Shown piece by piece: positions 4,932 to 16,378 of a stretch of 64,000 nt of DNA (positions within the stretch are counted from its first letter, which is position 1; each line of letters starts with the position of its first letter). A model generated the notes under the pieces. That model worked only from the letters and a program-made list of their open reading frames with translations, had not been told where the DNA came from and searched no databases. Made by a program: the position numbers and the translations under genes. Source of the DNA: Dictyostelium discoideum. Its lineage: Eukaryota. The DNA lies in assembly GCA_000004695.1 (NCBI GenBank), contig CM000153.2:3200001-3264000 (forward strand). The letters are read 5' to 3'.

Positions 4932-5402
4932 TATCGAGAATTCTTGGTGTTATGTTAAAGTTTCGTTTAAATTTGAAACTTTTTTTTATAATTAAAAAAA
5001 AAAAAAAACTAAAAAATAAAAAAAATAAAAAAAAAATAAAAAACGAATGAAAATTTAAAAAATAAAAAAGTGAAAATAATGAAAAATATTTTAAGTCCAA
5101 TCAGACCTGAAAAAAAATGAAAATAAATAAATATAAAAAAAAAAAAAATTTTAGGTAATATATATAATATTTATATATTCCTTTTAAAATCTTAAAAGAA
5201 TATATATAAGAATATAAAATATATAAAAAAATAATAAATAAATAAATAAATAAAATTTTTAAAGCAATTAATATTATTTATTTTATACATTAAAAGATCA
5301 ATTGATCACCACCAATTTTTATTTTATTTAAATTATTTCCACACCAATTTTTTTTATATTTATATTTTAATTTATTTTTCCAATTTGATTTATTATTTAC
5401 AG

Positions 5403-5717
5403 TTATTGTTTTACAGTTTCTCTAACATTAAGATTATCACTAAATAGTTTTAAAAACAATGGTTTATTTGATTTTGGAAGTGTTGATAAAATATGTAGTA
5501 AATCATTAGATTTTTCAATTAGAGATTTTATATTCTTTTGATTAAATGAACCTTGATCTAAAAATACTTTATTTAATATAAACGCTTCTTTTGTATTTAA
5601 TCTTATCTTATATTGTACCTGTTTTGGAAATTGATATGATAATCTAATAAATTTTCTATATATATTCATTGAACTCCTTATTGTTGGTATATTTATTATT
5701 TGTGCTACTCTAGTCAT
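5403..5717 (-). CDS. Small LYR-motif (Complex1_LYR-like) protein, probably mitochondrial
   Basis: 104-aa ORF with N-terminal L-Y-R-K-F-I-R-L spacing typical of the LYRM family. Single exon flanked by AT-rich sequence. Confidence 0.4.
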   Translation of the reverse strand: MTRVAQIINIPTIRSSMNIYRKFIRLSYQFPKQVQYKIRLNTKEAFILNKVFLDQGSFNQKNIKSLIEKSNDLLHILSTLPKSNKPLFLKLFSDNLNVRETVKQ

Positions 5718-11663: not shown

Positions 11664-12389
11664 TATAATAATAATTACCAAAAAATTCCATATCGCAAAT
11701 AAAATAAAGATTAAATCTATACCCAAAAGTATAAATAATGATATTTTTAAATTAAAAAAATCCTCATTTAAAACTCTTTTTTTATAAATTAAAGATTGTA
11801 AAAATCCTTGGGGTACCCATAATAATAAGAAAAAAAAATAAAGAAGTTTAAATTTATAATATTCAATATTTAATTTAATTGACCTATTTTTTAACCCTTT
11901 AATTACATAGTTATTTTCTATTATTACCTATTAATAAAAAAAAAAAAAAAAAAAAAAGTTAAAATTTATATTAATTTTGGACATGATCAAAATTAAAATT
12001 AAAATTGATATAAAATACTTACCTTTTTTTTTAAAAAAAAGAGGAATGGAATTAATATAAAAGTTATTAAAATAAAAATGTCATCAAATAAAACAAATTG
12101 AATATATGAGTTTAAATTTGAGTGAATTGCCATAACTGATGGTAACATACATAAAAGTACCATCATTATAATTGATAATAAATATGTAACATGAGGATAT
12201 TTATCAGTTTTATCGTAAACATCACCAATTATATTTAATATTGAATTGTATTCATCATTTGATAAAATACCATTTAATTTTAATGGTACTGTTTCATAAT
12301 CTTGTATAAATCTCCATTCATAGAGATTTACATCATAACAATACCCAAATTCAAATTCATATTTAAATTTAAATTTATTATTATTACTA

Positions 12390-12420
<31 letters not shown>

Positions 12421-12490
12421 TATTATTTATATTATTATTATTATCATTATTGTTTTTGATATTATTAATTTTATTTATAATAAATTCCAT
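11655..12490 (-). CDS. Hypothetical multi-pass membrane protein, 2 exons: 12490-12023 and 11927-11655
   Basis: Exon 1 has an N-rich N-terminus followed by hydrophobic helices (LLSIIMMVLLCMLPSVMAI, FILITFILIPFLFF). GTAAGT donor at 12022-12017 and TTAATAG acceptor. Exon 2 continues in frame (VIIENNYVIKGLKNRS...LFILLGIDLIFILFAIWNFLVIIIIFF*), also hydrophobic. Confidence 0.45.
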
Positions 12491-12760: not shown

Positions 12761-13387
12761 TTTTGCATTAACATTTTTTTGACTTAGGAACCAAAGAAAA
12801 AAAAAGTCGAAACCAATGGAAAGACTCAATTTTTAGATTTTCCCAAGCTGCCAAGAAAAATTATCTTTTTTTTTTTTTTTTTCAAAAAAAAATTTTTTAA
12901 AAAGTCATTAAAAAAAAAAAAAAAAAAAATAAAAAAAAAAAAAAATAAAAAAAAAAAAAAAATAAAAAAGATAATTTTTCAAGGAGAGATCTTTTTGATT
13001 GCGTTTTTTTAAAAAATTAGAAAGACAAAAATTGATCAAAAAAAAAAAAAAAATAAAAAAATAAAAAATAAATAAACATAAAAAAAAAAATAAAAAAGTT
13101 ATTTTTGGGGAGTTTTTTTTTTTTTTTTTTTTAATCAAAAAAATAGGAAAGTTTCACACGAATTTAAGTTTCCTGAAATTTTATTATTTTTTTTTTTTTT
13201 TTGTTTTTATTTATTTTTATTTAAACATGTTTGCAACGTTTACTAGTGAGGTGAAAATATTATTTTTATTATTATTATTATTTATTATTATTATTATTAT
13301 TATTAAAATTGAAAGTAATGATACATCTCACAGAAAAATTAATTTTTTTATTTATTTATTTATTTATTTATTTATTAATTAATTTAT

Positions 13388-13930
13388 TTATATATATCCA
13401 CTACCACCTTCACTCCTTCTTTTTCTACCAATTTTGAAATTATTACTATAATGATTAAATATGAAAACTGAAGCACCACAAAGACCCATAAAAGAGACAC
13501 AATAGAAAACAAACTTTAAAATACCAATGAAAGTTGCTCTGAGTTCCATTTTTCTAAGTTCAGTTCCATTGATAGTTCGAATACCAATTGTTGTTGCACG
13601 TGGTACATAAACACTTGATGTGAAAAATAGACCCCTTTTAATATTGATATTATTTAATGATAATACTTCTTTAAATTTTGCTACATCTTCTAATGGTACT
13701 GGTGAATTGTCATAGCATTTGCATTCTACATAGGTCTTAAAGAAAATACCATAAACTATATCAATCTCTGATCTATTATTATATTTATCCTTTAATATAA
13801 CATTTCTTTGAACATTGAAACATAATTTTCTTTCAAGCATTCTTGCAACTCTATCTTCAAAATTCATTCCTTTTTTTTTATTTTCTTTCCCTAAAGATTT
13901 TAATCTACCAATTTTACTAAATAATTTCAT
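13388..13930 (-). CDS. Mrr-like restriction-endonuclease-fold (PD-(D/E)xK) protein with C-terminal transmembrane anchor
   Basis: Motif order characteristic of Mrr_cat: NRSEIDIV (D..D), YVECKCY (ExK), VPLEDVAKFKEVL, KRGLFFTSS. C-terminal hydrophobic helix ATFIGILKFVFYCVSFMGLCGASVFIF, then a basic tail. Single exon. Confidence 0.5.
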   Translation of the reverse strand: MKLFSKIGRLKSLGKENKKKGMNFEDRVARMLERKLCFNVQRNVILKDKYNNRSEIDIVYGIFFKTYVECKCYDNSPVPLEDVAKFKEVLSLNNINIKRGLFFTSSVYVPRATTIGIRTINGTELRKMELRATFIGILKFVFYCVSFMGLCGASVFIFNHYSNNFKIGRKRRSEGGSGYI

Positions 13931-14017
13931 TTCTGTATATATTTAATAATTTAATTTTATATAAAAAAGATTTTTTTTTTTTATATTTAATTATGTGTGG
14001 TTGTGTTGTTTATTGAT

Positions 14018-14060
<43 letters not shown>

Positions 14061-14212
14061 CATATGACGTTTTAATTTATCATAAAAAGTTTTTTTTTTT
14101 TAAAATTTTTAAAAATAAAAAAAAAATAAAATTAATAAAATTCCCAAAAAATCCATTTTTTTTTTTTTTTTTTTTTTTAATTATTAGACGAAATTAAAAG
14201 AAAAAAAAGAAA

Positions 14213-16378
14213 ATGATAAAGAAAAAAGTTATAATAAATTATAATAAATATATTCAAAAAATATTTAATAATAATTATCAGATATATAGAATAAATTCAT
14301 TATATTCAAATAATAATAGGATTAACCATAACTATGGTAATATCATTAATGAAAATAATAATATAATAATAAATTATAATAACTTTAATTCATTTATTTA
14401 TAATAAAATTAATTATTGTTCAACGACAACATCTAAAATTATTGAAAAACAACAAGAAATTAATAAAAACAATAAAATTGCGTTAAAGAAATTTTTTTTA
14501 AAAGTTCACCCAGATTTATTTTTTCAATTTCCAAATATAAAGAAAACTAATGATAAATCACTCTCATTGTTACATTCATTTTTAGAAGAGATTAAAACGG
14601 AAAGATTATCAAGAAAACAATATGATTTACAATTTTATTATTTAGATAATAATATTTATGATAATGAGAATGATATACCATTCTTCAATATTAAATTCTC
14701 TGTTAATATATCATCATCATCATCATCGAATTCATTCGATAAAATTGCATATCATTTACAAGATGCACAAGAACAAATTCAACAATTTTTTAAATTATTA
14801 TCAATTAAAGAAGAATTCATACTTCATAGTATGATTGGTAATAAATCATCATTATCATCAAATAATAATGATATAAATTTAAATAATGATAGTTTATTAT
14901 ATTTTGTAAAGAATTTATCAAATTTTGCAAGAGAAACATCAAAAAATTTCATTGACCAAGAAAGAGAAATCGATTTAATGTATACCTATTTCTATATGGA
15001 ACATAAAATTAGAGTATTATTTCAAGATCATAATTTAGCATTGGATGAAAGAAAAAAACTTTTAAAAAAGTTAGAAAAACTGTTAAATAAATTATCACCA
15101 AAAAGTTTTCAAAATATTGGAATTGTGAATCAAATTTTTGAAAGAGATGAATCAATTGAAAATAAAAATAAAAATAATAATTATAATAATGGTGGTAGAG
15201 GGAGAAAAAGGAATGATAGATTGGAATCATTTGATTTAGATGATGATGAAATTGATAGACAAGGTGATAGATATCAAGGATTCGGTCAGAGATTAAGAAA
15301 CTCTGATCAAGAGACTAAACAAGAGATTATGGAACAATTTTCAATGTTTAGTGGATCAAATAAGAATCAATTCTCTGGTTGGCAACATATAAAGTCTGGT
15401 TATATTACACCAGAATCAAATCCAAAACAAGATGATTCAAAACTATCAGATCGTTTAGAAGGCGTTTCAGTGGTTTTCTCATCAAAGCTACCAAATGGCA
15501 TTGACTCTGAAGGTAGATTAATTTTAAATACAACTAAAAAGAAACAATCAACACTCTCTGAATGGACTAAAACTATTGAAACTTTTAAACCATCGACAAT
15601 AATTGAAAATATTAAAAATTGTAAAAATAGACAATCAATTGAAAAACAATTAGCAAAATACTTTAAAGTTGGTTTCATATTCACAGATTATGATAAACAA
15701 AATCAAAAACAATATCTACAATTATTAGATAGACTTATTTCAATTGGTAATTTTAAACATCAAAAATCAATCGAGAAATCTTATCAACAAGATTTAAAAG
15801 ATCAAGAAATTTTATTAAAACAACAATTACAAAATAATCATGGTATTCAAAGTTTTACAAAAGATCAATTCATAAATAATAAAGATGGTGAAAAAGAAGG
15901 AGGGGGAGAAGAGGATGAAGATTTTAATATTAAAGGTTTAGAAGAAATTAGTTTAAAAATTTTAATGAATGATCAAAAAACAACAAAACCAAATAATACC
16001 AATCAAAAAGAATTATATTGGAAATTCGATCCAACATTGGGTGTAATTAATGTACCGTTAAATGCAAATTATCAAGATATTATTAAATTTTTAAAATTAA
16101 ATCATGAATCAATTAAAATTGAATTTGAAAGACATAAAATTAATATGAGAAATATTGCTCAACTTGAATTAACTTTTAAACGTCAATTTAGATTATTAAC
16201 ATTAAAAAAAGTTGATCAAACAATCACTTTAAATGAAATGGTATCATGTTTAAGAAGATTATTATTTAACCATCAACCTTACTTACCCTATTTTTATGGT
16301 ATGAAAGTAATAATTGGTAGAGAAAATAAAATTAATCCTGATGGTTCAATAGTTATAAAATGGGATTTCGAATTATAA
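14213..16378 (+). CDS. TCAIM-like protein (DUF4460/DUF4461, mitochondrial T-cell activation inhibitor family)
   Basis: N-terminal block ALKKFFLKVHPDLFFQFPNIKKTNDKSLSLLHSFLEEIK matches the remembered DUF4460 signature (ALRPFYFAVHPDFFGQHP...NENSLKRLSVYLENL). Single 721-aa exon, N-rich as is typical. Confidence 0.55.
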   Translation: MIKKKVIINYNKYIQKIFNNNYQIYRINSLYSNNNRINHNYGNIINENNNIIINYNNFNSFIYNKINYCSTTTSKIIEKQQEINKNNKIALKKFFLKVHPDLFFQFPNIKKTNDKSLSLLHSFLEEIKTERLSRKQYDLQFYYLDNNIYDNENDIPFFNIKFSVNISSSSSSNSFDKIAYHLQDAQEQIQQFFKLLSIKEEFILHSMIGNKSSLSSNNNDINLNNDSLLYFVKNLSNFARETSKNFIDQEREIDLMYTYFYMEHKIRVLFQDHNLALDERKKLLKKLEKLLNKLSPKSFQNIGIVNQIFERDESIENKNKNNNYNNGGRGRKRNDRLESFDLDDDEIDRQGDRYQGFGQRLRNSDQETKQEIMEQFSMFSGSNKNQFSGWQHIKSGYITPESNPKQDDSKLSDRLEGVSVVFSSKLPNGIDSEGRLILNTTKKKQSTLSEWTKTIETFKPSTIIENIKNCKNRQSIEKQLAKYFKVGFIFTDYDKQNQKQYLQLLDRLISIGNFKHQKSIEKSYQQDLKDQEILLKQQLQNNHGIQSFTKDQFINNKDGEKEGGGEEDEDFNIKGLEEISLKILMNDQKTTKPNNTNQKELYWKFDPTLGVINVPLNANYQDIIKFLKLNHESIKIEFERHKINMRNIAQLELTFKRQFRLLTLKKVDQTITLNEMVSCLRRLLFNHQPYLPYFYGMKVIIGRENKINPDGSIVIKWDFEL

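Follow-up and report, generated by a model that had tools for sequence, protein, structure and literature searches.

A stand-alone Mrr-type nuclease domain joined to a predicted membrane helix is conserved in dictyostelids and some other protists

Nucleases of the Mrr restriction type are seen as defence enzymes of prokaryotes, and so one may ask what a domain of this type, followed by a membrane helix, is doing in the genome of Dictyostelium discoideum. The question is raised by one gene in a 64,000-nucleotide stretch of D. discoideum DNA (the window), for which an earlier note, made from the sequence alone, had proposed a PD-(D/E)xK nuclease of the Mrr type with a C-terminal membrane anchor, possibly an old horizontal acquisition. 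The overall reading of that note is supported by the analysis reported here, with three caveats: the tail-anchor geometry is found in the dictyostelids only, horizontal acquisition is no more than a possibility, and the protein is not a complete Type IV enzyme.

The gene is a complete, single-exon coding sequence on the minus strand (13388..13930), as are all of the protein features described below. An ATG-to-stop reading frame fills this interval exactly and encodes 180 amino acids, with the stop codon at 13388-13390. The annotated D. discoideum protein P0001 has the same length, which indicates that there is no intron, and it is 99% identical to the reading frame over the full length. The two substitutions, Y50H and S174N (codons at 13781..13783 and 13409..13411), are at positions that are not conserved in the family and presumably represent strain polymorphism. 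The codon usage and the AT-rich flanks had been described as native, and this holds: the GC3 of the gene is 0.149 versus 0.118 in the neighboring gene, and the GC content of the flanks is 0.10-0.14. Both sides of the gene have very long homopolymer runs of A and T (12860..13140 and 14020..14180), including one of about 35 A residues at 14024..14058; these are typical of Dictyostelium intergenic DNA and are not a feature of the nuclease gene. A scan of the locus for bacterial promoters and terminators gave results below chance and is irrelevant to this gene.

The assignment to the Mrr nucleases was originally made from four motifs, and all of them are present in the order given: EIDIV (aa 55-59), YVECKCY (aa 67-73), VPLEDVAKF (aa 78-86) and KRGLFFTSS (aa 98-106). 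The Pfam Mrr_cat model (PF04471) matches aa 21-116 with 28.0 bits (E 2.6e-6), which is above the curated gathering cutoff of 21, and three other PD-(D/E)xK families, PDDEXK_15, NERD and UPF0102, are below their thresholds. Mrr_cat is also matched by 51 of 54 diverse relatives, the best of them with an E value of 2.8e-11. A search of NCBIfam with the window protein gave no match.

The nuclease core occupies aa 21-121 (13568..13870) and has the order alpha-beta-beta-beta-alpha-beta. When a profile of 25 family members was compared by hhalign with E. coli K-12 Mrr (sequence and numbering translated from NC_000913.3), the two aligned with a probability of 91.5% (E 8.8e-7) over Mrr residues 171-280. 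In this register, E25 (13856..13858), a conserved glutamate of helix 1, is placed on Mrr E172; D57 (13760..13762), the catalytic Asp of the 'ID' motif in strand beta-2, on D203; E69-C70-K71 (13718..13726), the (E/Q)xK catalytic motif in strand beta-3, on Q219-A-K221; and RGLFFTSS in strand beta-4 (13613..13636) on the E. coli sequence RGVFITTS. An independent MAFFT alignment gave the same register, and thus both methods bring the catalytic residues into line with the Mrr core, a point on which the earlier note had made its proposal depend. Helix alpha-2 carries VAKFKEVL (aa 83-90; 13661..13684), which is invariant in the family alignment and serves as the family signature.

The predicted structure agrees with this assignment. 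AlphaFold2, supplied with the family alignment, gave a model (pLDDT 96.5) in which the alpha-beta-beta-beta-alpha-beta core is followed by a long helix, residues 122-178. The top PDB match is AF1548 (1y88) from Archaeoglobus fulgidus, the archetype of Mrr_cat, and the predicted model can be superposed on this solved structure. Further matches include the nuclease domains of Can2/Card1, VC1899, LlaBIII, NucS, FokI, AspBHI and MspJI; Shedu SduA is also among the structural neighbors, and mitoribosomal RAP-domain proteins are matched at lower Z. These PDB relatives surfaced through fold comparison only, as a search of PDB sequences with the single protein returned nothing meaningful (PrgX and FliM at E of about 0.3) and a PDB search with the family profile gave no match. 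A weak partial match to PHROG 244 ('RusA-like Holliday junction resolvase'; E 1e-4, aa 14-80, 13691..13891) recurs in the relative P0033; this is possibly a hint of junction-resolving relatives, and it is too weak to interpret.

The residues expected to be catalytic hardly vary among about 200 aligned sequences: E25 is present in 168 of 168, D57 in 191 of 193, E69 in 198 of 199 and K71 in all 199, and two other residues, K85 (201 of 202) and R111 (186 of 186), are as well preserved. Such invariance implies constraint, whereas synonymous sites would be expected to have reached saturation over distances of this size. The predicted active site is apparently intact, and the pattern resembles that of an active enzyme rather than that of a decayed domain.

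Some other positions in or near the active site are unusual. C70 (13721..13723), in the middle of the ExK motif, is a cysteine in 199 of 199 family sequences. A cysteine at this position is unusual for PD-(D/E)xK enzymes, and its side chain could be sensitive to redox state or close to the metal. N52 (13775..13777) is a near-invariant asparagine (165 of 189 members) that replaces the first Asp of Mrr motif II (D199 in the E. coli sequence GDGGID). An invariant Asp, D48 (13787..13789), is located at the end of strand beta-1, four residues before N52 and nine before D57, and the hairpin between strands beta-1 and beta-2 is one residue longer here than in E. coli Mrr. The arrangement of N52 and D48 may represent a rearranged metal-binding site.

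The family to which this protein belongs is compact. Among 1.84 billion representatives, all of which were searched with phmmer, 267 proteins matched at E<=1e-3 and 186 at E<=1e-10, and at 50% identity the family has about 190 representatives. All of the members that have an organism name are eukaryotic. They include proteins from five Dictyostelium species, Polysphondylium violaceum, Cavenderia fasciculata, Acytostelium subglobosum and Synstelium, and so the orthologues in other dictyostelids, which the earlier note had suggested looking for, are present in at least eight species. Other members of the Amoebozoa are Planoprotostelium, Clastostelium and Phalansterium, and one stramenopile, Blastocystis, is also included; animal, fungal and plant names are absent from the named members. 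Three metagenomic members on long contigs were checked, and their neighbors are either without a Pfam match or eukaryotic (e.g., GINS, PI-PLC and MIF4G). Several members come from transcript assemblies and are therefore expressed. The family is old within the eukaryotes.

Where the domain came from is more difficult to explain. The Mrr_cat domain is predominantly prokaryotic, as is also evident from a 2012 census of PD-(D/E)xK proteins; the census noted its presence in eukaryotes as well, reported no horizontal transfer for the Mrr_cat/DUF2034 group and left the phylogeny unresolved (PMC3424549). When 185,579 species genomes of prokaryotes were scanned for VAKFKEVL, 66 pattern matches were obtained, none of which is a relative. 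A looser pattern led to a single locus among prokaryotic genomes, in a Methanosarcinales metagenome-assembled genome (CAYQKJ010000010.1), where a gene (L006 1552..2034, plus strand) encodes a 160-aa stand-alone Mrr_cat protein. It has about 32% identity across the core, and hhalign gives 98.4% (E 4.7e-15). When this archaeal protein was itself used as the query, it found only itself and one other protein among 5.8 billion proteins, and therefore no bridge family or donor was identified. Neither a scan of IMG/VR nor a tblastn search of phage collections found a relative, and a viral origin is not supported. No donor appeared in the prokaryotic, phage and viral searches, and an old horizontal acquisition is thus no more than a possibility.

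The C-terminal part of the protein is what sets it apart. A single transmembrane helix is predicted at aa 133-158 (13457..13534) from the Kyte-Doolittle profile and from its family-wide offset. The stretch, TFIGILKFVFYCVSFMGLCGASVFIF, has 26 residues with one internal Lys; its best 19-residue Kyte-Doolittle mean is 2.1, and in the AlphaFold2 model it sits inside the long helix 122-178. A hydrophobic 19-mer (KD>=1.4) occurs at a nearly fixed offset after the ExK glutamate in 130 of the 158 members that are sufficiently long for the count, versus 18% of shuffled tails; the distance has a median of 73 residues (IQR 70-77). Judged by these offsets, the predicted helix is a conserved part of the family architecture.

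The short tail that follows it, NHYSNNFKIGRKRRSEGGSGYI, is basic (aa 159-180; 13391..13456; 22 residues, +5/-1). The D. discoideum protein thus has one predicted helix, no more than about 30 residues from the C-terminus, and is without a signal peptide, as in tail-anchored proteins, and in the dictyostelids generally the helix ends 5-22 residues from the C-terminus (22 in D. discoideum, 9 in Cavenderia and 5 in Acytostelium). Across the family, however, the helix is followed by a median of 58 residues, with a range from 4 to 333, and by 30 or fewer in only 24 of 130 members. Therefore, the helix and the basic tail described in the earlier note are present, but the tail-anchored topology that it proposed is not family-defining and holds for the dictyostelids only; it is a dictyostelid shortening rather than the family plan. 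In non-dictyostelid members (e.g., P0010 aa 145-195, P0011, P0013 and P0016) this segment is long and rich in charged residues, and in two family alignments it contains a semi-conserved Trp some 20-30 residues beyond the helix. The Trp-bearing segment has been lost in dictyostelids.

The other end of the protein gives some indication of how it might reach a membrane. The first 20 residues of the D. discoideum protein, MKLFSKIGRLKSLGKENKKK (13871..13930), have a charge of +8/-1 and, from the family pattern, may be a short presequence for mitochondrial import or else belong to a lengthened helix alpha-1. They are modelled as a helix continuous with alpha-1, and they may do nothing other than extend it. 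The hydrophobic moment of this short segment is not above that of shuffles, and so the presequence assignment comes from the family pattern only. In that pattern, the 92 members that have at least 20 residues ahead of the core average 0.47 acidic versus 3.65 basic residues in their first 20, and 58 of the 92 have no acidic residue; Ser, Thr and Ala are enriched in the pre-core segment relative to the remainder of the protein. By composition and visual inspection, many of these N-termini resemble typical mitochondrial presequences, among them Blastocystis MFSRSILSLSNKASSSLMKKCSTLNSKLFRSFA, MLSSSRSLSMIRRLFTTA, MFAPRALARPPVTLHRLLHTA and MLRPSSLRRAARAPASS. In about one third of the gene models, among them the transcript-derived P0015 of Phalansterium, the protein begins only 2-12 residues ahead of the core, and hence a presequence would not be universal, unless those models are truncated at the 5' end. 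Taken as they stand, the presequence-like N-termini that many members have would favor import over insertion by a tail anchor.

Charge also bears on orientation. The mean net charge is +3.2 for the 15 residues that precede the helix and -0.3 for the 15 that follow it, and the N side is the more positive one in 110 of 130 members. By the positive-inside rule, a positively charged flank of a helix is located on the cytosolic or matrix side, and so the nuclease domain would be expected to face the cytosol or the mitochondrial matrix.

The neighboring genes provide some further observations. A 282-bp AT-rich spacer (13931..14212), which is a probable bidirectional promoter region, separates the nuclease gene from a head-to-head gene on the plus strand (14213..16378) that encodes 721 amino acids and has DUF4460 and DUF4461, a combination that is also that of TCAIM, a human mitochondrial protein. 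The same head-to-head arrangement is present in D. purpureum (L007, 2745..4712 versus 5001..5537) and was not found in Cavenderia. A functional link with the TCAIM-like gene was considered and rejected; the arrangement is conserved only within Dictyostelium and would be ordinary local synteny, and for the same reason it is weak support for a mitochondrial location. A 163-aa reading frame at 11999..12490 (minus strand) is rich in Asn over a long N-terminal tract and hydrophobic in its C-terminal half; its match to DUF237 is sub-threshold (E 0.009, 16.5 bits versus a cutoff of 25).

What, then, might the protein do? We infer the identity of the membrane, the orientation, DNA as the substrate and the biological role, and the explanation that we tentatively prefer is that of an endonuclease anchored in the mitochondrial inner membrane, facing the matrix, imported by a presequence and acting in mtDNA maintenance. 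The bare Mrr_cat domain would be a catalytically competent, metal-dependent PD-(D/E)xK endonuclease that lacks a sensor for DNA modification, and the single helix just past the core would tether it to a membrane. The basic N-terminal presequence would direct the protein into mitochondria, where the helix would be arrested in the inner membrane with the positive N-flank and the nuclease domain on the matrix side. This would place the nuclease beside the membrane-attached mtDNA nucleoids, where it could cut mtDNA in the course of maintenance, e.g., by acting on recombination or replication intermediates, which it would process or resolve, or by degrading mtDNA that is damaged or unwanted. A more specialized version of this idea, which we offer as a speculative long shot, is that the family eliminates or polices mtDNA in amoebozoans and other protists, an example being the nucleoid DNase of Physarum, in which a molecularly unidentified Mg2+-dependent DNase digests mitochondrial nucleoids during uniparental inheritance (PMC8864008). 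An inner-membrane-tethered, restriction-derived nuclease could be released or activated on cue; the endonuclease of metal-dependent type, the presence of the family in Amoebozoa, the presequence-like N-termini and the predicted matrix-side domain make it compatible with such a role.

The dictyostelid geometry also agrees with a protein that is inserted by its tail anchor into the outer membrane of mitochondria or the membrane of peroxisomes or the ER and whose nuclease domain faces the cytosol. This leads to another explanation, which we consider rather unlikely, namely a tail-anchored or type II nuclease of the ER/nuclear envelope, mitochondrial outer membrane or peroxisome that faces the cytosol or nucleoplasm and degrades foreign or misplaced DNA, e.g., that of bacterial prey, endosymbionts or viruses, as innate defence or housekeeping in phagotrophic protists. 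The dictyostelid helix near the C-terminus, the basic tail and the lack of a signal peptide are what such a protein would have, many members are essentially without an N-terminal extension, and a positive N-flank would equally predict a cytosolic N-terminal domain upon ER insertion. The hosts, bacterivorous amoebae and the gut protist Blastocystis, are suitable, the structural neighbors include the defence nucleases Can2/Card1, Shedu SduA, MspJI, AspBHI and LlaBIII, and the closest archaeal relative matches a 'Mrr-like nuclease' model, ZorD of Zorya (E 4.8e-7). However, the window protein matches none of the PADLOC defence models at E<=0.01, and it has no sensor or recognition domain by which foreign DNA could be separated from self. 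Most family members, with tails of up to 333 residues, would not be tail-anchored, and most of those that have an N-terminal extension have an acid-depleted, presequence-like one.

The substrate could also be other than DNA. The PD-(D/E)xK fold has RNA-acting members, Can2/Card1 cut RNA as well as DNA, and together with the lower-Z matches to mitoribosomal RAP-domain proteins this could suggest an RNA-acting protein or a nucleic-acid-binding scaffold at an organellar membrane, e.g., in mitochondrial transcript processing. We regard this as quite improbable, because the closest relatives in both sequence and structure (E. coli Mrr, AF1548 and LlaBIII) are Mrr_cat proteins of the DNA-restriction type and because a metal-binding and catalytic set that is invariant in about 200 sequences argues against a purely structural role. 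Finally, the mainly prokaryotic occurrence of Mrr_cat might lead one to think of a gene recently transferred from bacteria, a contaminant of the assembly or the decaying remnant of a restriction system with no host function. To this we assign a negligible probability. The codon usage and flanks are native, there are orthologues in at least eight dictyostelids and synteny with D. purpureum, and the family is also present in other Amoebozoa and in Blastocystis, its catalytic residues being invariant, whereas the prokaryotic scans yielded one archaeal protein and the IMG/VR and phage searches none; these conservation data effectively refute it.

The call of an Mrr domain is by itself not new. UniRef already labels the orthologues of D. 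purpureum, D. firmibasis and Planoprotostelium as 'Restriction endonuclease type IV Mrr domain-containing protein', and the 2012 census had recorded the domain in eukaryotes. A literature search found no described eukaryotic Mrr protein with a transmembrane helix and no mitochondrial one. What would be considered new are the architecture of a nuclease plus a helix, the strict conservation of the active site throughout the family, and the presequence-like N-termini together with the charge asymmetry. Several protist lineages have thus kept, for a very long time, a stripped-down Mrr_cat domain with an apparently intact active site, welded to a membrane helix. If the mitochondrial explanation is true, a restriction-enzyme module would have been recruited to the control of an organelle genome, and if the protein is both mitochondrial and nucleoid-facing, it would add a new participant to the maintenance or elimination of mtDNA in organisms whose nucleases for these processes are largely unknown. 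D. discoideum is genetically tractable, which makes it an attractive organism in which to pursue the question.

Comparison with known systems helps to place the family. The window protein is best described as a member of the Mrr_cat domain family and not as a complete Mrr-type Type IV enzyme, because Mrr_N, the winged-helix sensor domain of EcoKMrr-like enzymes, is missing; there is no Pfam match to it, and only 20 residues precede the catalytic core. E. coli Mrr has a QxK motif, whereas the window protein has the canonical ExK, and the position of Mrr D199 is Asn52 here, with D48 invariant in the family. As Smith et al. (2009) are cited in PMC12292046, the two Asp residues of Mrr motif II are reported to be essential in the Mrr family; of the two named there, the window protein has the second (D57) and Asn52 in place of the first. 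Given this replacement and the absence of Mrr_N, methyl-dependence should not be assumed. Relative to Mrr_cat proteins in general, this family has added a conserved transmembrane helix, and its named members are all eukaryotic. The archaeal stand-alone protein shares YVECK and (L)EEVAKF with the window protein, but it has neither a hydrophobic helix after the core nor an N-terminal basic extension, and it matches the ZorD model, which the window protein does not.

Tail-anchored membrane proteins resemble the dictyostelid members in having one helix near the C-terminus, in the basic tail and in the lack of a signal peptide; they differ from the family in that only the 24 members counted above have so short a tail, and the presequence-like N-termini would point to another route of insertion. 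NERD (PF08378) was rejected as the family, with 13.1 bits versus a cutoff of 22.1 for the window protein, and the weak NERD matches in 28 of the 54 relatives reflect clan-level similarity. Human MGME1, a soluble exonuclease of the RecB type that is not an Mrr_cat protein and has no membrane anchor, was matched weakly by Foldseek (E 0.047). It acts on mtDNA and has the superfamily fold in common with the window protein, a remote similarity at the level of the fold only.

A further comparison is with RRG7 (formerly DUF2034; yeast YOR305W), which is eukaryotic and mitochondrial (PMC2768984) and was grouped with Mrr_cat in the census (PMC3424549). Membership in RRG7 (PF10356) was ruled out, and the two are separate families: Pfam gave no RRG7 match for the window protein at E<=10, RRG7 is absent from the 25 most-matched families listed, of 35, for the 54 relatives (E<=1), and hhalign of the family profile with an RRG7 sequence, one validated by Pfam as RRG7 at 3e-72, gave a probability of 1.1%. 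The overall homology is thus not significant, and yet at a locally aligned position RRG7 has a QCK motif that is reminiscent of the ECK of this family. RRG7 provides a precedent for a Mrr_cat-like protein in mitochondria (PMC2768984), the compartment in which we tentatively place the Dictyostelium protein and its relatives.
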